A DNA stretch of 24,963 nucleotides from the UHGV virus genome UHGV-0093507; one strand, 5' to 3'. Origin of the DNA: a virus. The notes below the pieces were generated by a model. The model was given only the letters and a program-made list of their open reading frames with translations, made no database searches and was not told where the DNA came from. This document shows positions 2,311 to 24,913 of the stretch, piece by piece; the stretch's first letter is position 1; each line of letters begins with the position of its first letter. The translations under genes were made by a program, and so were the position numbers.

Positions 2311-3199
2311 TGCGCCCACCTTCGCTGATGGTGAATGACTCACAGCGCGCTGCCTGTATGTCGCTGATGGCCATATTCTGTGTGGGTTCGATTATCTCCA
2401 CGCGTTGCACACCGTGCACATGCAGTGCGGCAGCAATGGCGGACAACGCCACGTCCTGACCGATAAGCCCCTGTTCAGCCAGCCACTTCCTGAATGACGA
2501 TTCTGCCGCGGCCAGAATAGGTTCGGATTCCGGGCCGGGGTAAAAGTACAGCTTTGCATTCAGCCGCCATGTCACGATTCTGGCGCTCTGTACGGTCAGG
2601 CGGTCGGCCACCGGGCGGGTATCCTCTGCATTCAGAACAGCGCGAACGGTATTAAGCAACGCCTCCGTTGCTGTGCCGTCGCCCTCAGTGGACAGGATGG
2701 AAACCGTCACACAGGCCGGAGACGGGCTGATGGCCCGCGCATCACGCACCAGACCGCTGGCGCTGCGTGCAAAATACTCGTATGCACCTGACGGGCCAGC
2801 AACACTCAGGCCGTCGTACGCCCGCTGCGCCCGCAGTCTCAGCGAGGTGTCGCTCTCCATCACCGCGTCGGTGGTATCCGTTGCCGGAGTGATAACCAGG
2901 CGCTTTGTGTTCATATTGCCCGCGAGGTTGTCCAGGTTTGTCCCTGAGCCGTGGCTTAACATGCAGGCGCGTGCGCCCTCGTTAACCCGCTGGCGTAACA
3001 GCATTTCACGAAACGACATGGTTTGAGCGATAACGTTCAGGGGTTCCGATTCCAGCTCCAGCGCGGCGGAGACGGCTTCACGCTGTTCGGCAGGATAGGA
3101 CGCAATCATCATGGCCTTTGTGTCAGCCAGAATTGCCTCAAAATCAGGCTCCGCGATGATGGCGGGTTCCGGTAACTGGGAAAGGTCAACAGCAGGCAT
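2303..3199 (-). CDS. J: Baseplate protein (P2 gpJ-like)
   Basis: 298-aa ORF, size and position as P2 J (between W and I). Confidence 0.8.
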   Translation of the reverse strand: MPAVDLSQLPEPAIIAEPDFEAILADTKAMMIASYPAEQREAVSAALELESEPLNVIAQTMSFREMLLRQRVNEGARACMLSHGSGTNLDNLAGNMNTKRLVITPATDTTDAVMESDTSLRLRAQRAYDGLSVAGPSGAYEYFARSASGLVRDARAISPSPACVTVSILSTEGDGTATEALLNTVRAVLNAEDTRPVADRLTVQSARIVTWRLNAKLYFYPGPESEPILAAAESSFRKWLAEQGLIGQDVALSAIAAALHVHGVQRVEIIEPTQNMAISDIQAARCESFTISEGGRNE

Positions 3200-3202
3200 G
3201 AT

Positions 3203-3553
3203 TTACTCTCTCAGCGTGATGGTTAATTCAACATTCTGCATGGTCTGCATGACAGTGCCCGACAGCGTCACCCCTGCGCGGCCTCCCGCTTTCCAGACAA
3301 CGTCGATGGCATCCAGGGCAATGCGGGGTTCCCATCGTGTCAGCGCAATCACGGCAGCACTCATGCATTGCAGACGCGTGGTGTTATTCATGGGTTCGTC
3401 AATCAAATCAGGCACAAGGCTGCCATATTCCCGTCGCATAACCCGGCTTGCCAGCGGGGTGATCAGGATGTCCCTGACTGACTGTTTCAGGTGCTCCATA
3501 TCGTTCAGGTTTCCCGTCCCGTCCGGGTTCATTCCTGTGTAGCGGGTTGTCAC
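3203..3553 (-). CDS. W: Baseplate wedge protein (P2 gpW / GPW-gp25 family)
   Basis: 116-aa ORF; start overlaps the gpV stop by 4 nt; size and position match P2 W. Confidence 0.8.
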   Translation of the reverse strand: MTTRYTGMNPDGTGNLNDMEHLKQSVRDILITPLASRVMRREYGSLVPDLIDEPMNNTTRLQCMSAAVIALTRWEPRIALDAIDVVWKAGGRAGVTLSGTVMQTMQNVELTITLRE

Positions 3554-19938: not shown

Positions 19939-20169
19939 TTAATGGAGTTTGTTTTGCTGCTGGAAGAGTTGTTGCAGCTCGCGCAGATCATCCGCCAGAT
20001 AGCTGAAAACAGAGGCGGAATAGATGTTCGATAGCGCGTGGCTGCGCTCATGCAGCATATTGATGTGCATGATTTGCGCGACGCGTGATGCGCGGAAAAG
20101 TCTACGGTTGATTTCAGTCTGGATGTGACGACGCGCAGCGTATGCGCGCTGTTGTTTGCGGTTTGCCAT
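19939..20169 (-). CDS. Hypothetical small basic early protein
   Basis: 76-aa ORF in the early operon orientation; no family recognised. Confidence 0.4.
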   Translation of the reverse strand: MANRKQQRAYAARRHIQTEINRRLFRASRVAQIMHINMLHERSHALSNIYSASVFSYLADDLRELQQLFQQQNKLH

Positions 20170-20491
20170 GGTGTGGCCTCTTTGCTCGGTGATAGAAATA
20201 GCTCACCATCCAGAGTTGAGAATCTCGGGGTGGCGAGACGTACAGGGTTCTCAACACCGGAGAGCAAAGAATCCGGCCCGACCGAAGTCGGCCCCGTACG
20301 CCCCGCCATAATTCTGACGCGAAAAAGACGTGGCAATACAGTACGCACAAAAAAACCGCTGGCGCGGTTATGCGCTTTGCTCTGTATCGGGTTGAGAATC
20401 CCGGCACCCGTTTTATGAGGTGCAGCGGAAATGTAACCTGACCGATTGCGGCATGGCAAGCGGTTTTTTTGTGTGTGCATGTTCTGGTTTC

Positions 20492-20791
20492 TTACTGGTT
20501 CAGAAAAAAATCAAAAACGTTATCGATGCGTTGCAGCAGCTCTTGCTGCATTGCTTCCGGCGTTTCCGGTTCGCCAGGTGCTCCCAGCGTTGCGCAGAAA
20601 TCAGCGATTTCATGATGGAGCGTCAGGCGAATGGCAGGAGCCGTGGTTTTGGCGTGCTCCAGCTGATCCAGCAGTGCCAGCACAGCAGACGGCGAGAGCA
20701 TTGCGCGAAATGCCAGTAATTTTTGAGGAGTTGCCATTCGTTGCAGGGCAAATGCCAGTTCGCGTAGCTTCTGGTGGTTGATGGTGCTCAT
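20492..20791 (-). CDS. Hypothetical early protein
   Basis: 99-aa ORF; start overlaps the upstream gene stop by 4 nt (translational coupling). Confidence 0.45.
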   Translation of the reverse strand: MSTINHQKLRELAFALQRMATPQKLLAFRAMLSPSAVLALLDQLEHAKTTAPAIRLTLHHEIADFCATLGAPGEPETPEAMQQELLQRIDNVFDFFLNQ

Positions 20792-21054
20792 GTTCTGGCT
20801 TCCTTCAGTAGCTGGTTAAACATGTGAGTAAGTGGATTGCTACACCCGAACGGCATCGGGTTTACGTGGTAAGAAGCCTGGCCTCCAGTTTTGCGAGCGC
20901 GACCACCTGTGCTGCGGTTTGTTCTGATGACTAAGCCGCTGCGCCAAAGTCGGCGTAACTCAGCATTAATAGCTGTGGTTGGGGTGTTCAGTGCTGCGGC
21001 GATTTCTCCGCCGCTACAACCCGGATGTGTAGTGATGTAGTCCAGAATGGTCAT
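20788..21054 (-). CDS. Hypothetical early protein, possible winged-helix DNA-binding fold
   Basis: 88-aa ORF; segment GGEIAAALNTPTTAINAELRRLWRSGLV looks like a winged-helix recognition region; coupled to the neighbouring genes by 4-nt overlaps. Confidence 0.4.
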   Translation of the reverse strand: MTILDYITTHPGCSGGEIAAALNTPTTAINAELRRLWRSGLVIRTNRSTGGRARKTGGQASYHVNPMPFGCSNPLTHMFNQLLKEART

Positions 21055-21254
21055 TTACGTGGCTCCTGTACCTGTCGGATAAGATTCACCCGCGCCACGT
21101 TGGTGGCGCAGAAGTAAGTGCCGTCAGTGAGGTAGATGTGGTGTGCATCCTTTTCCGAACGATGTTTGTCGATAGTGGTAATCAGGCGTTCGTCGACCTC
21201 GTATTCGCGCCCTCTGGAGGTAAAGCGAACGACGGGAAAATGCTTAATTGCCAT
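21051..21254 (-). CDS. Hypothetical small early protein
   Basis: 67-aa ORF in operon orientation with 4-nt overlap to the downstream gene. Confidence 0.4.
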   Translation of the reverse strand: MAIKHFPVVRFTSRGREYEVDERLITTIDKHRSEKDAHHIYLTDGTYFCATNVARVNLIRQVQEPRK

Positions 21255-21277
21255 TGCGCCCCCTTTGTCCAGTAACC

Positions 21278-21694
21278 CTATGCGTTAAATACGGCACGTT
21301 GCGCGTCATCAATGAATACAGCTTGAGATCGTTCTATCAGGCGGAGATTTGTCAGAAGCTCTGACTCTTTTGTGTGGTAAGGCGTTATCAGGTATTTGCC
21401 GTGCAGTTCGGCAATAATGGTGTATTGCGTCATTATTGCCGAACCAAGAATGTAAATGCGGCGTCCAATGCTGGACGGATTCATGGCTGCAACTGTTGAC
21501 TGTGTTTTAAGAGTGTCGATTTCTTTGCCCTGTTCCTCAATAATTTTGGCTGCGTCAGCGGTGATTTTTGCAATGGTCAGTGCGTGAAGTGCTGCCATAT
21601 GTTGGCTACGCTTCACGGCATCTTTAGCCATTTCATCTTCCGCTTCTGATATTTTTTTTAATGTGTCGATAATGCCTTCTTCTTTTGCGTTCAT
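21278..21694 (-). CDS. Hypothetical protein in an AT-rich block of the early region
   Basis: 138-aa ORF with a Lys/Glu-rich, coiled-coil-like N-terminal half; visibly lower GC than flanking phage genes. Confidence 0.45.
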   Translation of the reverse strand: MNAKEEGIIDTLKKISEAEDEMAKDAVKRSQHMAALHALTIAKITADAAKIIEEQGKEIDTLKTQSTVAAMNPSSIGRRIYILGSAIMTQYTIIAELHGKYLITPYHTKESELLTNLRLIERSQAVFIDDAQRAVFNA

Positions 21695-21793
21695 TTTATA
21701 TCTCCGTTATTTACGTGTGCGAATACCTCCGTTAATACGGATGGTTTTCACGTTTTCTTATTTAATTTGATGTTTTATTTGTATCGTTATTCA

Positions 21794-21898
21794 TCAGAGA
21801 AAAACGCTCGATCGTTTCACTGAATTAATAATTCGCATAATCCCAATGGCGCAGACCACCGAAATAATCAGAATAAGCCATGAAATAAATATACTCAT
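21794..21898 (-). CDS. Small hydrophobic membrane peptide (34 aa), absent from the ORF track
   Basis: ATG at 21898 overlaps the stop of the upstream 81-aa gene (ATGA). Hand translation gives MSIFISWLILIISVVCAIGIMRIINSVKRSSVFL, a single predicted TM helix with a basic C-terminus. Confidence 0.3.
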   Translation of the reverse strand: MSIFISWLILIISVVCAIGIMRIINSVKRSSVFL

Positions 21899-22140
21899 GC
21901 GATATTTCCCAGCTTATACGGTTCAATATGTTCCCCGCATTCTGCGGCACAGATCAGCTCGGAAAGTTCGTTAAGTGCATCCAGATCATCAGCGTAAAAA
22001 GCCACGTCATACAGACTTCGGATTGCTCTGGTCAATGAGTCACGGGCCGCACGTTCAGCATGAGTGCCTGATGCACTTAAGCGAAAATAAAAACGCTCAA
22101 GTGCTTTGTTAATGAGAGTTTTATATTCTTTGCCCATCAC
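21895..22140 (-). CDS. Hypothetical early protein
   Basis: 81-aa ORF in operon orientation; no family recognised. Confidence 0.4.
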   Translation of the reverse strand: MMGKEYKTLINKALERFYFRLSASGTHAERAARDSLTRAIRSLYDVAFYADDLDALNELSELICAAECGEHIEPYKLGNIA

Positions 22141-22148
22141 AACGCCCT

Positions 22149-22436
22149 TTAATCTGCTTTCTGTATTTCAGCTTCTGAATCCATACAAATAATTTCGATA
22201 TAGGGTTCATCGCCATTAACCTGGCGTGCCTTTTCAGCTTCGCTAATGATTTCTCGTACGGTCTGGTACGGAAGTTCCACAAGCAGTCGCGTGCCGTTCA
22301 GATAAACGTAAGTGGCTTCGTCGGCTCCGTTTTTACCCGCCGGAGTCACTCCGTCAATAGCGGATGCACGTAATAACAGTTCACCGCGAAAATCAATAAA
22401 ACGGATAAATACACCTTGTGCATGGTCTTTGGTCAT
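22149..22436 (-). CDS. Hypothetical early protein (about 95 aa from the internal ATG)
   Basis: Track ORF 22149-22550 overlaps the upstream gene. The ATG at 22436 lies just after that gene's stop (22447-22449) and has an AGGTG-like RBS. Confidence 0.4.
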   Translation of the reverse strand: MTKDHAQGVFIRFIDFRGELLLRASAIDGVTPAGKNGADEATYVYLNGTRLLVELPYQTVREIISEAEKARQVNGDEPYIEIICMDSEAEIQKAD

Positions 22437-22446
22437 AAAGCACCTG

Positions 22447-22785
22447 TTATAAATCAGCCTGTTTAATAAAACTTTGCCCGCGAAGCAGACGATCAACCGT
22501 GCGAAGTGCTTCGTATAATGTGAAATCCTGCCCGAACTGATTGTCGCCACAGCTCAATGCAAAAATGCGGTTTCCGGTAAACGGATTGCGTGGGCATTTG
22601 TGGATCACGATTCCAGCTTTCTCAATCAGCCAGGCGTGCTCGCCGATTTGTTTTACTGGGTAGCCATCCGGCGTTGCGTGTGTATCACTCAGGCTGTAGC
22701 GGATGTTGCTGCGTGATGCACTGGTAGTGAAACGGTTAGCGTGGCGTTCTGTTCCGGTACGAAAATTACGGCGTTGCTTCAGCAT
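22447..22785 (-). CDS. Hypothetical early protein
   Basis: 112-aa ORF, second gene of the leftward early operon. Confidence 0.4.
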   Translation of the reverse strand: MLKQRRNFRTGTERHANRFTTSASRSNIRYSLSDTHATPDGYPVKQIGEHAWLIEKAGIVIHKCPRNPFTGNRIFALSCGDNQFGQDFTLYEALRTVDRLLRGQSFIKQADL

Positions 22786-22799
22786 AAAATGACACCTCG

Positions 22800-23078
22800 T
22801 TATTTTGTCATCTGCACGTATTTTTCTGCGCTCCTGATTGTTTTCAGGAAAAGAGCGAAGAGATTTACTGTGCGTCTTGAGTTCTTTTCATCCTGGTTGA
22901 TGGGAATTGAACCTCTGTCAGCCTGTCTTTTCACTGTGTTAACAGCTTGGTTGGTACGCTTTGCGTAATCTTTCAGGCTTTCTTCAAGTACTGGTAACCC
23001 ATGCTCATCGCGGTAGGGATAGAACGCTGCTAAACGCTCAAAGTCTGCCTGTTCGTGTGTGTTCAGGACTTTTGCCAT
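22800..23078 (-). CDS. Cox-like / excisionase-type small DNA-binding regulator, first gene of the early operon, divergent from repressor C
   Basis: 92-aa ORF positioned exactly as P2 cox relative to C and the operators; possible HTH around AKRTNQAVNTVKRQADRGSIP. The assignment is positional, not from sequence identity. Confidence 0.45.
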   Translation of the reverse strand: MAKVLNTHEQADFERLAAFYPYRDEHGLPVLEESLKDYAKRTNQAVNTVKRQADRGSIPINQDEKNSRRTVNLFALFLKTIRSAEKYVQMTK

Positions 23079-23117
23079 GTGTGATAACCTGCGCTATCTG
23101 TGGTTGTTTGTGACTTG

Positions 23118-23170
23118 GTGTACTTATAAGTACACCTTGTGCGCAAGCTTAGTGTACTTATAGGAACACT
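23118..23170. promoter_or_regulatory. Immunity-switch operator region: an 18-bp perfect palindrome and a related imperfect second site between cox-like and C
   Basis: gtgtacttataagtacac (23118-23135, perfect palindrome) and agtgtacttataggaacact (23151-23170); the shared 11-mer gtgtacttata recurs 34 bp apart. TATAAG-like hexamers are embedded in both orientations. Confidence 0.6.
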
Positions 23171-23174
23171 GTCA

Positions 23175-23483
23175 ATGCTTATCGGTGAAAAAATTAGAGT
23201 GATTCGTGAATCAGAGGATTTAACGCGCGAAGAATTTTGCGGCCTGATTGATGTGCCTATCGGCACTTTGCGTCGTTATGAAACGGGGAGGATTGAAAAC
23301 ATAGGTGGCGAAGTGCTTATCAAGATTGTTAATCACCCTCGCTTTTTTAAGTACATGAATTGGCTTATGACGGGAAAAACAAATGAGGCTGCTGGGCAGA
23401 TCAGTCCGTCTCTCTCCCCTGATGGGCCAAAAAGCACATCGCCTTCTCAAAAACCCCGCAAGACTGGCACACAGCCCGGCTAA
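23175..23483 (+). CDS. C: Immunity repressor (P2 C-like)
   Basis: ATG at 23175 directly after the second operator. HTH segment (…REEFCGLIDVPIGTLRRYETG…) and C-terminal HPRFFKYMNWLMTGKTNEAAGQISPSL resemble P2 C as recalled from memory; the track ORF starts 12 codons further upstream. Confidence 0.7.
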   Translation: MLIGEKIRVIRESEDLTREEFCGLIDVPIGTLRRYETGRIENIGGEVLIKIVNHPRFFKYMNWLMTGKTNEAAGQISPSLSPDGPKSTSPSQKPRKTGTQPG

Positions 23484-23532: not shown

Positions 23533-24507
23533 ATGAGCATAAAATCAATTCCGGGAGGGTATCTTCTTGACATGCGCCCGGAGGGGCGTAAAGGCAAACG
23601 CATTCGTAAAAAATTTAAAACGAAATCGGATGCAGTTTTATATGAGCGGTGGGTGCTGGCGCAACAGCATAACAATGAGTGGAAAGGAAACTCCATTGAT
23701 CGCCGTCCGCTGTCAGTGCTTATTGACTTGTGGTGGAAATACCACGGCCAGCTAATGAAGTCAGGGCATAACACGCGCCTTAAATTGCTGCGCTTGAGTG
23801 AGGCAATGGATGACCCGTGCGTGCATAAACTTAATACAACGATGCTCACCGAGCTACGTGTGTCCAGGATAGAGCAGGGGATACAGCCCAGCACCATAAA
23901 TCGAGAGATTGGGGCGTTAAGCGCGATGTTTACCGCACTCATCTCATCCGGCCATTTTCTTAACGATAACCCCGTTCAAGGCCTTAAAGGAATGAAGGTT
24001 AACGAGCGCGAAATGGGATATCTGAGTAAGTCTGAATGTGTTCAGTTGCTGGATGCACTGGCTGAAAATCCCGATGAACGGCTGGCTGTCGAAATCCTTC
24101 TGTCGACCGGGGCGCGATGGGGCGAGGTAGCGGCACTGGAGCAGCGCCGTGTTCTTCATTGTCGAATCACTTTTTCAAAAACGAAGAACAGCAAAAACCG
24201 TACCGTTCCTATTTCTGAAAGCCTGTTTGAAAAGATCAAAAAACGGGGCGGGAAACTGGTGTTTCCGACGCTGGATTATCCATTGGTTCGCGATGTCATC
24301 AAAACGGTCGCACCTGATGTTCCTGATGGCCAGGCTGTTCATGCGCTGCGCCACACCTTCGCCAGTCATTTCATGATGAACGGCGGCAATATTCTGACGC
24401 TCCAGAAAATTCTGGGGCACGCAAAGATTCAGACAACGATGATTTATGCCCATCTTGCGCCGGATTACTTGCAGGATGCGGTGAGATTTAATCCTATTGC
24501 TGGGTAA
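23533..24507 (+). CDS. int: Tyrosine integrase (P2 Int-like site-specific recombinase)
   Basis: ATG at 23533 gives MSIKSIPGGYLLDMRPEGRKGKRIRKKFKTKSDA…; C-terminal catalytic signature …HALRHTFASHFMMNGG…LGHAKIQTTMIYAHL (R-H-R-Y family); downstream of C as in P2. Confidence 0.9.
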   Translation: MSIKSIPGGYLLDMRPEGRKGKRIRKKFKTKSDAVLYERWVLAQQHNNEWKGNSIDRRPLSVLIDLWWKYHGQLMKSGHNTRLKLLRLSEAMDDPCVHKLNTTMLTELRVSRIEQGIQPSTINREIGALSAMFTALISSGHFLNDNPVQGLKGMKVNEREMGYLSKSECVQLLDALAENPDERLAVEILLSTGARWGEVAALEQRRVLHCRITFSKTKNSKNRTVPISESLFEKIKKRGGKLVFPTLDYPLVRDVIKTVAPDVPDGQAVHALRHTFASHFMMNGGNILTLQKILGHAKIQTTMIYAHLAPDYLQDAVRFNPIAG

Positions 24508-24517
24508 GGAGGATGTT

Positions 24518-24913
24518 GTGGAAAAAACAGTTAATAGCGATTTGCATTTAGGTCAGTACTGGAGAATAGACATTGTCTGCGATCCAGAACTTCGAGATGA
24601 GGTTGAGCAATATTTTTCTCGACACGATGTTGGTTTTAGCAAAATTGAAGTTTTTTCCGTCGAAAATCCATATAAACTTGCTCTGTTCTTTGATTTCGCG
24701 AAGAAGGGTGTGGAGGTTGCAAAAGCCATTATGGGACTCTTAGACCGAAATGATATTGAAATAACGATGTATCGTGCTACGGACAGTAGCCCGCAGTCTG
24801 TAAAAAGCATCAAATTGCGTAAGTCTGAAGACGTAGAGAAATGTAAAGATTTGCTTAGTACGTGTGTCGCAATTGGCGTTCAACGAAATAAGGAAAAAGA
24901 GGGGAGCGAATGA
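24518..24913 (+). CDS. Hypothetical AT-rich protein immediately downstream of int
   Basis: RBS aaggagg (24506-24512) inside the int 3' end with a GTG at 24518. About 131 aa, Lys/Glu-rich, no family recognised; lower GC than int. Confidence 0.4.
   Translation: MEKTVNSDLHLGQYWRIDIVCDPELRDEVEQYFSRHDVGFSKIEVFSVENPYKLALFFDFAKKGVEVAKAIMGLLDRNDIEITMYRATDSSPQSVKSIKLRKSEDVEKCKDLLSTCVAIGVQRNKEKEGSE

Follow-up and report, generated by a model that had tools for sequence, protein, structure and literature searches.

Results

Gene content and organization of the region

The window is the whole 24,963-nt stretch of UHGV virus genome UHGV-0093507 that was analysed. Nucleotide matches and gene order show the part of it described here (Table 1) to be the early (Pe) operon of a P88-like prophage (Xuanwuvirus, Peduoviridae), lying on the minus strand. 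P88-like phages (P88, P88_4B11, PhiR44_2 and the Citrobacter phage Shae_phiSM) match the region at 87–95% nucleotide identity, and matching E. coli prophages were found in 1397 of 5426 complete genomes. The window follows the P88-like backbone gene order common to P88, P88_4B11 and the E. coli prophages: on the early-operon strand, a cox-like gene is followed by DUF4761, a 95-aa gene, DUF4754, a peptide of 34–37 aa and an optional cargo gene, and then by a 67-aa gene, a MarR-type wHTH gene, an Ead/Ea22-like gene and a gpA-type replication endonuclease. In annotated relatives, the integrase and the C-type repressor are encoded on the opposite strand to the early operon.

Table 1. Features of the early-operon region, in coordinates of the window
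Feature	Position	Strand	Remarks
67-aa backbone gene (phrog_3459)	21051..21254	-	downstream border of the slot
Single-gene insertion, 446 bp (+/- 3 nt)	21268..21713	-	one clean alignment gap in P88 and P88_4B11
138-aa orphan protein, phrog_9338	21278..21694	-	full-length HMM match, E 8.1e-81, positions 1-138 of 138
AT-rich spacer, from peptide gene to slot	21695..21793	-	GC 0.30
Conserved 5-bp hairpin in the early mRNA, UCCGU-AUUA-ACGGA	21728..21741	-	
Single-pass membrane micro-protein (predicted), 34 aa	21794..21898	-	TM residues 3-21, basic C-terminal tail
DUF4754 protein, upstream partner of the peptide	21895..22140	-	81 aa; 80 aa from ATG at 22137 (GTG at 22140)
cox-like gene, first of the early operon	22800..23078	-	phrog_575, Cox-like, 1e-7; synteny

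Upstream of the cox-like gene, direct reading of the sequence reveals a perfect -35 element (TTGACA, 23174-23169) and two TATAAGTACAC direct repeats, which are consistent with a candidate P2-type Pe promoter/operator region. A simple promoter scan did not call Pe, and our placement of it is based on the one perfect -35 element together with synteny. In P2-type switches, the C protein represses Pe during lysogeny. Since everything downstream of Pe would be subject to this repression, the peptide and the 138-aa protein are both expected only in lytic growth.

The first-pass annotation had singled out 21280–21900 as an AT-rich stretch and had treated the whole of 21278–22140 as an insert. A trough in base composition does exist: in 300-nt windows, the GC content is 0.35–0.38 at 21500-21999, compared with 0.52–0.54 in windows starting at 20400-21000, and the genes to the left of the slot have GC contents of 0.52–0.57. 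Its minimum (0.30–0.36), however, falls at 21695-21898, on the spacer (GC 0.303) and on the peptide gene (GC 0.362), and not on the insert. As this GC-minimum sequence is conserved in P88 and P88_4B11, the trough cannot be assigned to the inserted DNA. The 138-aa gene has a GC content of 0.444, and the values for the DUF4754, 95-aa and cox-like genes are 0.455, 0.451 and 0.444, respectively. On the right-hand side the trough has no sharp boundary, and the promoter-proximal part of the operon stays at 0.43–0.51 out to approximately 23400.

A fixed, coupled pair of small genes

The 81-aa protein matches Pfam family PF15946 (DUF4754) with an E-value of 2.2e-54 and a score of 182.1 bits (cutoff 27), residues 2–81 covering all of the profile (positions 1–80 of 80); it also corresponds to phrog_2549 and is 98.8% identical to its P88 equivalent. 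It occurs in only 14 of 50,697 phage records, all of them P88-like, and a scan of one genome per species returned 2 loci only. A number of longer "DUF4754" proteins (103–128 aa) might be taken for fusions, but these arise where a frameshift lets another frame be read through, and most of them come from assemblies of low quality. PADLOC gave only a chance-level match for DUF4754 (E 0.019), and searches of Pfam, PHROGs, PADLOC and NCBIfam returned no informative homologue of DUF4754, of the peptide or of the 138-aa protein. A full-text literature search found no paper that mentions DUF4754, and the literature on Xuanwuvirus, on CP-933T and on the fil and dhr genes of phage 186 contained nothing on these genes.

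All three ORFs described by the first-pass annotation are present, and its proposal that the peptide gene is coupled to the 81-aa gene by an ATGA overlap is confirmed: the TGA stop codon of DUF4754 overlaps the ATG of the peptide (21898-21895, minus strand), with a weak GGGA/GGGGA Shine-Dalgarno-like element approximately 7 nt upstream of that ATG. In P88 (gp06, DUF4754, and gp07, "membrane protein", YP_009113050.1), P88_4B11 and the E. coli prophages, both genes recur in this order and share the 4-nt overlap. For a wider survey we retrieved, from both IMG/VR and genomes, approximately 160 loci surrounding DUF4754. All 167 loci scored encoded the peptide, each with a 4-nt overlap at the stop codon of DUF4754 (ATGA in 166 and GTGA in one). 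Neither gene is thus part of an insert as had been supposed, both being constant members of the backbone, in all 167 loci and in 14 of the 14 phage records that carry DUF4754; the insertion/deletion is limited to 21268-21713. Among the 5426 complete E. coli genomes, the peptide/DUF4754 segment has 1106 carriers, which include O157:H7 and ST131 strains.

The hydrophobic character that the first-pass annotation ascribed to the peptide was borne out. On the Kyte-Doolittle scale, its most hydrophobic 19-residue stretch (residues 3–21) averages 2.82, and among the 123 ATG-initiated ORFs of 30–60 aa in the window it is the only one to reach 2.8. The positive-inside rule predicts an N-out/C-in orientation. 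The peptide has already been annotated by PGAP and in the P88 record, as "hypothetical protein" or "membrane protein".

The canonical form of the peptide is 37 aa long (MSIFISWLVLIISVACAIGIMRIIHSVKKIERFFTGE). Relative to P88, two 1-nt deletions in the window allele replace the tail KKIERFFTGE with KRSSVFL, giving the 34-aa frameshift form. This allele is the rarer one: matches at 99% identity or better were confined to 5 of 1107 E. coli records, and an exact cluster look-up found the 34-aa sequence on 388 contigs and the canonical form on at least 1000. Its occurrence on 388 contigs nevertheless marks it as a stable lineage allele. Other length alleles have 30 or 45 residues, and diverged alleles have 41. 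A short N-terminus, a 19-residue hydrophobic helix and a basic tail recur in the 41-aa alleles and in a 47-aa version from Citrobacter, and the Citrobacter locus keeps the position of the peptide and its overlapping start even though its DUF4754 is only 43% identical. The frameshifted 34-, 30- and 45-aa alleles imply that the distal tail is not critical, and any contact with DUF4754 would therefore have to involve the TM segment or the first residues of the tail.

One reading of this tolerance is that the peptide ORF is a by-product that keeps ribosomes on the mRNA (anti-polarity or coupling) and yields no functional product; the several frameshifts accepted by the C-terminal tail fit that idea, as does the peptide's having no homologue of known function. 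The pattern of substitution, however, makes it highly improbable. Distinct single-nucleotide variants divide 27:32 (synonymous:non-synonymous) in the peptide frame and 10:49 in each of the other frames. Against the diverged alleles, pN/pS is 0.23–0.36 for the peptide and 0.17–0.21 for DUF4754, and the other frames show pN>pS. Where the TM segment varies, the replacements are conservative and hydrophobic, and the layout of TM segment plus basic tail survives in the strongly diverged Citrobacter version. By these measures the peptide is a genuine gene, under purifying selection in its own frame only, and DUF4754 and the 34–37-aa peptide are shown, at the level of sequence comparison, to be a fixed, coupled backbone pair under purifying selection.

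The peptide could be a membrane-depolarizing toxin and DUF4754 its co-translated neutralizer, acting for example in host shut-down or in lysis timing. The size, hydrophobicity and basic tail of the peptide resemble those of small membrane toxins, coupling guarantees that DUF4754 is made first and in step with it, and the pair was never split in 167 loci. Of the hallmarks of type I toxin-antitoxin systems, however, the locus has the hydrophobic membrane peptide and lacks the antitoxin RNA. We found no antisense RNA family (Rfam gave no match at 20400-23400 except isrK and C4, 1.4 kb away) and no convincing antisense promoter, the only promoter-like site on the plus strand (21646-21673) scoring at chance level and lying inside the optional insert. 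There is also no PADLOC or Pfam toxin match, and the position of the pair within a repressed lytic operon makes a role in lysogen addiction improbable. We consider this reading unlikely.

Alternatively, the peptide might act alone, as an early inhibitor of cell division or as a superinfection-exclusion factor. It is a small membrane protein of the early operon, and small early phage proteins with division or exclusion roles are well known. We found no sequence or family link to such proteins, however; exclusion by a lysogen would need expression that the position in the operon argues against, and the strict coupling to DUF4754 suggests a function involving two proteins. These points leave a stand-alone role with an outside chance. 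We favor, as set out in the Discussion, a joint function of the two proteins during lytic growth.

An exchangeable slot downstream of the pair

The insert consists of the 138-aa ORF, 19 nt upstream of it that include its own Shine-Dalgarno sequence (GGAG, 7 nt before the ATG), and approximately 10 nt downstream. Scoring the state of this slot as the distance from the peptide stop codon to the 67-aa gene in 108 distinct loci, we found it empty, with a spacer of approximately 87 nt, in 50; P88 and P88_4B11 are in this state, whereas the slot in the window is filled. In 44 loci the slot measures approximately 500–540 nt and encodes a relative of the 138-aa protein, of 136–138 or, rarely, 122 aa. 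Four loci have a slot of 352–353 nt with a different, all-helical ORF of 87/105 aa, three have slots of other lengths (107, 397 and 842 nt), and six were left unscored when the 67-aa gene was not found. The 138-aa family always occupies this same slot, even in a diverged Citrobacter prophage, and is also found there in four phage records. In this survey of presence and absence, which the first-pass annotation had proposed, the 138-aa gene is thus optional (44 of 108) and the peptide and DUF4754 are constant (167 of 167). Comparison of the 87/105-aa cargo with the hairpin module of the 138-aa family, described below, gave an hhalign probability of 8%.

A consensus scan of the minus strand at 21254-21793 found no promoter- or terminator-like sites. 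Across the region as a whole, promoter-like sites number 3, against 4.3 expected, and promoter- and terminator-like sites are no commoner than in shuffled sequences. With no such site of its own, the 138-aa gene behaves as a promoter-less cassette that is read with the early operon. The slot thus takes one ORF at a time, lacking a promoter but equipped with a Shine-Dalgarno sequence, and such ORFs are present, absent or exchanged among otherwise near-identical phages. Cargo would be swapped by homologous recombination in the conserved flanks.

These results bear on the earlier suggestion that a moron had been acquired separately. The morons of temperate phages are a concept due to Hendrix and Juhala. 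The part of the suggestion that stands is that the 138-aa gene is a separate and dispensable insertion, as seen from the gap in P88 and the 50 empty loci; like a moron, it is an extra gene between genes that are adjacent in related phages. In the classical sense, it would be an autonomous gene for lysogenic conversion or defence that benefits the host, and in addition to the presence/absence insertion between conserved genes, the GC content of the insert (0.435) is indeed below that of its left neighbor (0.52). It also falls within the range of the right-hand backbone genes (0.36–0.455). The classical definition fails on the promoter and terminator that a moron brings with it, neither of which the consensus scan, a sequence-based criterion, found in the insert; what is present is an ORF and a Shine-Dalgarno sequence on the operon strand. 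The 138-aa protein, moreover, matches no PADLOC model. An autonomous host-benefit gene is, in our judgment, decidedly unlikely, and we describe the 138-aa gene instead as an exchangeable operon cassette. Its insertion is ordinary phage mosaicism and not a new kind of system.

A conserved mRNA hairpin next to the insertion point

The spacer between the peptide gene and the slot is itself composite. Approximately 73 nt adjoining the peptide gene are conserved in every slot state, and the final 19 nt are part of the inserted DNA. The conserved portion can form a 5-bp hairpin in the early mRNA, a short way upstream of where cargo is inserted, and the 3′ arm of this hairpin runs into a GGAGG motif. 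Cargo is inserted directly after the GGAGGTATTCGCACACG motif that follows the hairpin. Pairing is conserved in 98.8% of cells, as compared with 32–60% in slid controls, and two of the pairs show compensatory changes between CG and UA. Both one-sided changes produce G-U pairs, and do so only in RNA of the sense (minus) strand. The same hairpin was scored as terminator-like on the plus strand.

The 138-aa cargo protein

The family to which the 138-aa protein belongs, phrog_9338, is annotated as "unknown function", and the protein has no match in Pfam, PADLOC or NCBIfam. Clustering at 90% identity divides the family into 87 clusters, and Escherichia and Citrobacter are its only sources. When 1.84e9 representative sequences were searched with a profile, 25 matched at E<=1e-3, all of which were members of the family or fragments of them. 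The PDB sequence profile search returned only chance matches, to designed helical proteins, and Foldseek found no match below E 1e-3 in BFVD. The search for remote homology that had been proposed for this protein thus places it in an orphan family of its own and yields no informative homologue.

AlphaFold2 predicts an antiparallel helical hairpin (residues 3–64), a low-confidence linker and a small C-terminal beta-barrel of the SH3-like type (approximately residues 79–127), with a pLDDT of 79.7 over the whole protein and 83.3 over the C-terminal domain. The barrel model is a generic one and so are its fold matches: SH3-like small beta-barrels of the chromo/Tudor/KOW kind and B. subtilis YfhH (1sf9) share only 2–18% sequence identity with it. 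The N-terminal hairpin gives non-specific helical matches only.

The family is modular, in that the hairpin is found with the barrel, with a shorter C-terminal domain (the 122-aa version has the same N-terminal module) or alone, in proteins of 75–86 aa. Residues 9–45 of the hairpin fall into roughly five deeply diverged alleles, which have been recombined with a well-conserved barrel. Omega is approximately 0.24–0.51 in those segments of the hairpin and the C-terminal domain where dS is unsaturated, which indicates that the 138-aa ORF is a real gene. We considered positive selection on the hairpin and rejected it, since pN<pS wherever it could be measured and dS is otherwise saturated; this saturation points to old mosaic alleles rather than to positive selection. 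A role like that of Gre or DksA, the RNA-polymerase secondary-channel factors, suggested itself from the combination of a hairpin with a globular domain and was likewise rejected: the tip of the hairpin (approximately residues 27–33) is the most variable part of the family and has no conserved acidic residues (KRSQH in the window; ANNHID, NAGMIG or NDGMIE in other alleles), and there is no Pfam match to Gre or DksA.

With low confidence, we infer that the 138-aa product is a dispensable protein-binding adaptor of the lytic cycle, serving in host takeover or counter-defence.

Discussion

A working model of the locus

Our preferred reading, to which we would give a probability of about one half, is that the Pe operon carries a DUF4754/peptide pair acting at the envelope in the lytic cycle, followed by a slot for an exchangeable 138-aa adaptor. 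According to this model, which is built from sequence comparison, the peptide and the 138-aa protein would be made only in lytic growth. Termination-reinitiation at the ATGA overlap would yield the peptide in a roughly fixed ratio to DUF4754, and the peptide would insert into the inner membrane with its N-terminus out and its C-terminus in. There it would anchor DUF4754 to the membrane, or serve as its partner, in an early function that is directed at the host and exerted at the envelope. Candidates for that function in the lytic cycle are division, membrane physiology and exclusion. The 138-aa protein would be a non-essential cytoplasmic adaptor whose conserved barrel binds one partner and whose diverged, mosaic hairpin provides alternative specificity, and it may serve as an accessory of host takeover or counter-defence. 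The position in the operon disfavors roles that need expression in the lysogen, such as superinfection immunity, addiction or lysogenic conversion, and lytic-only expression appears to fit a host-directed early function better than a toxin or exclusion factor expressed in the lysogen.

Like Hok, TisB and Ldr, which are type I or other small membrane toxins, the peptide falls in the range of approximately 30–50 aa and combines a single hydrophobic helix with flanks that carry charge; unlike them, it has no antisense RNA and does not stand alone, being the second cistron of a coupled pair in a lytic operon. Lambda Kil and T4 Imm are small early phage proteins that act on division or the envelope, and Imm is located in the membrane. 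The peptide resembles them in being small and (by inference from its operon) early and, in the case of Imm, in its predicted membrane location, a likeness of context only; it shows no detectable sequence or family kinship to them. Compared with morons, the 138-aa insert differs in showing no promoter- or terminator-like site of its own and in being read with the early operon, and its GC content lies within the range of the right-hand backbone genes.

Significance

The general phenomena seen here, mosaic accessory genes in the early operons of temperate phages and small membrane proteins, are familiar, and current views would be unchanged unless a function of the pair were found. What the survey does provide is a defined and testable backbone pair, in which the micro-protein is shown to be a real gene, and a set of empty, filled and alternative-cargo slots that constitute natural isogenic comparisons. 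There is a slim chance that the locus amounts to more than this, namely a previously unrecognized DUF4754/micro-protein early module that manipulates the inner membrane, with the slot as a hotspot for counter-defence or host-takeover adaptors whose hairpin sets specificity. If the module reading is true, about 20% of complete E. coli genomes would possess such a module.

Variation in the peptide and the adjoining spacer

Compared with P88, the window's gene for the single-transmembrane peptide has two 1-nt deletions that shift the reading frame of the tail, leaving a product of 34 aa that ends in KRSSVFL. Because alleles of 45 and 30 aa circulate beside this frameshift allele, the distal tail of the peptide is dispensable or variable. 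In the AT-rich spacer lies a conserved 5-bp hairpin, with compensatory changes and G-U wobbles on the sense strand; it adjoins a GGAGG motif as well as the site at which cargo is inserted. Read on the plus strand, the same hairpin is followed by a T-run and has the look of a terminator.

Features of the window, with their coordinates and strands
Feature	Coordinates	Strand	Remarks
Derepression family protein (PF25738) gene	19939-20169	-	immediately downstream of C4/isrK
C4 antisense RNA	20226-20313	-	Rfam, 78.5 bits, above gathering score
isrK	20349-20423	-	Rfam, 62.8 bits, above gathering score
Promoter-like site	20459-20430	-	ends 7 nt ahead of isrK
Spacer hairpin	21728-21741		5 bp
Peptide tail, frameshift allele	21794-21830	-	
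138-aa ORF	24497-24913	+	between integrase gene and prophage end; AT-rich (GC about 0.40)

Variants of the slot cargo

Among the related prophage loci (L-numbers, each in its own coordinates), L022, L037, L065, L066 and L077 carry as slot cargo (~2853-3206) an all-helical protein of 87/105 aa whose tail is basic. A relationship between this protein and the hairpin module of the 138-aa cargo family is possible (hhalign probability only 8%). L048 (2946-3314) encodes a 122-aa slot variant that has the same hairpin and a shorter C-terminal domain. Within the 138-aa family itself, two E. albertii members (P0072 and P0075) have a hairpin–barrel linker lengthened by tandem heptad repeats, DTGLNLS/DTRLNLP. 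The protein P0008 (163 aa, 6 contigs) is an in-frame fusion of the DUF4761 N-terminus to cargo protein residues ~20-138, which implies that a deletion in some prophages has taken out DUF4754 together with the 95-aa and peptide genes on either side of it.

A 99.7% near-identical E. coli prophage (H15, NZ_AP045783.1 2234121-2236920) has its 1.6-kb early-operon segment split by an IS5 element, and a contig labelled as the Firmicute Vagococcus sp. (L009, NZ_JBQPOM010000071.1), with a 96% identical DUF4754 and a canonical peptide, probably reflects contamination with enterobacterial DNA or an assembly filed under the wrong name.

Flanking modules

To the left of the slot, C4, isrK and the PF25738 gene together look like an RNA-controlled antirepressor module. 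L002, L005 and L008 have a gene for a regulator of ~205 aa in its place, for which a Phage_ASH (PF10554) match is recorded in L008 only. Near the prophage end, searches of Pfam and PADLOC with the product of the AT-rich ORF returned no match; in L001, btuC lies past the prophage end. Such att-proximal placement is typical for lysogen-expressed cargo.
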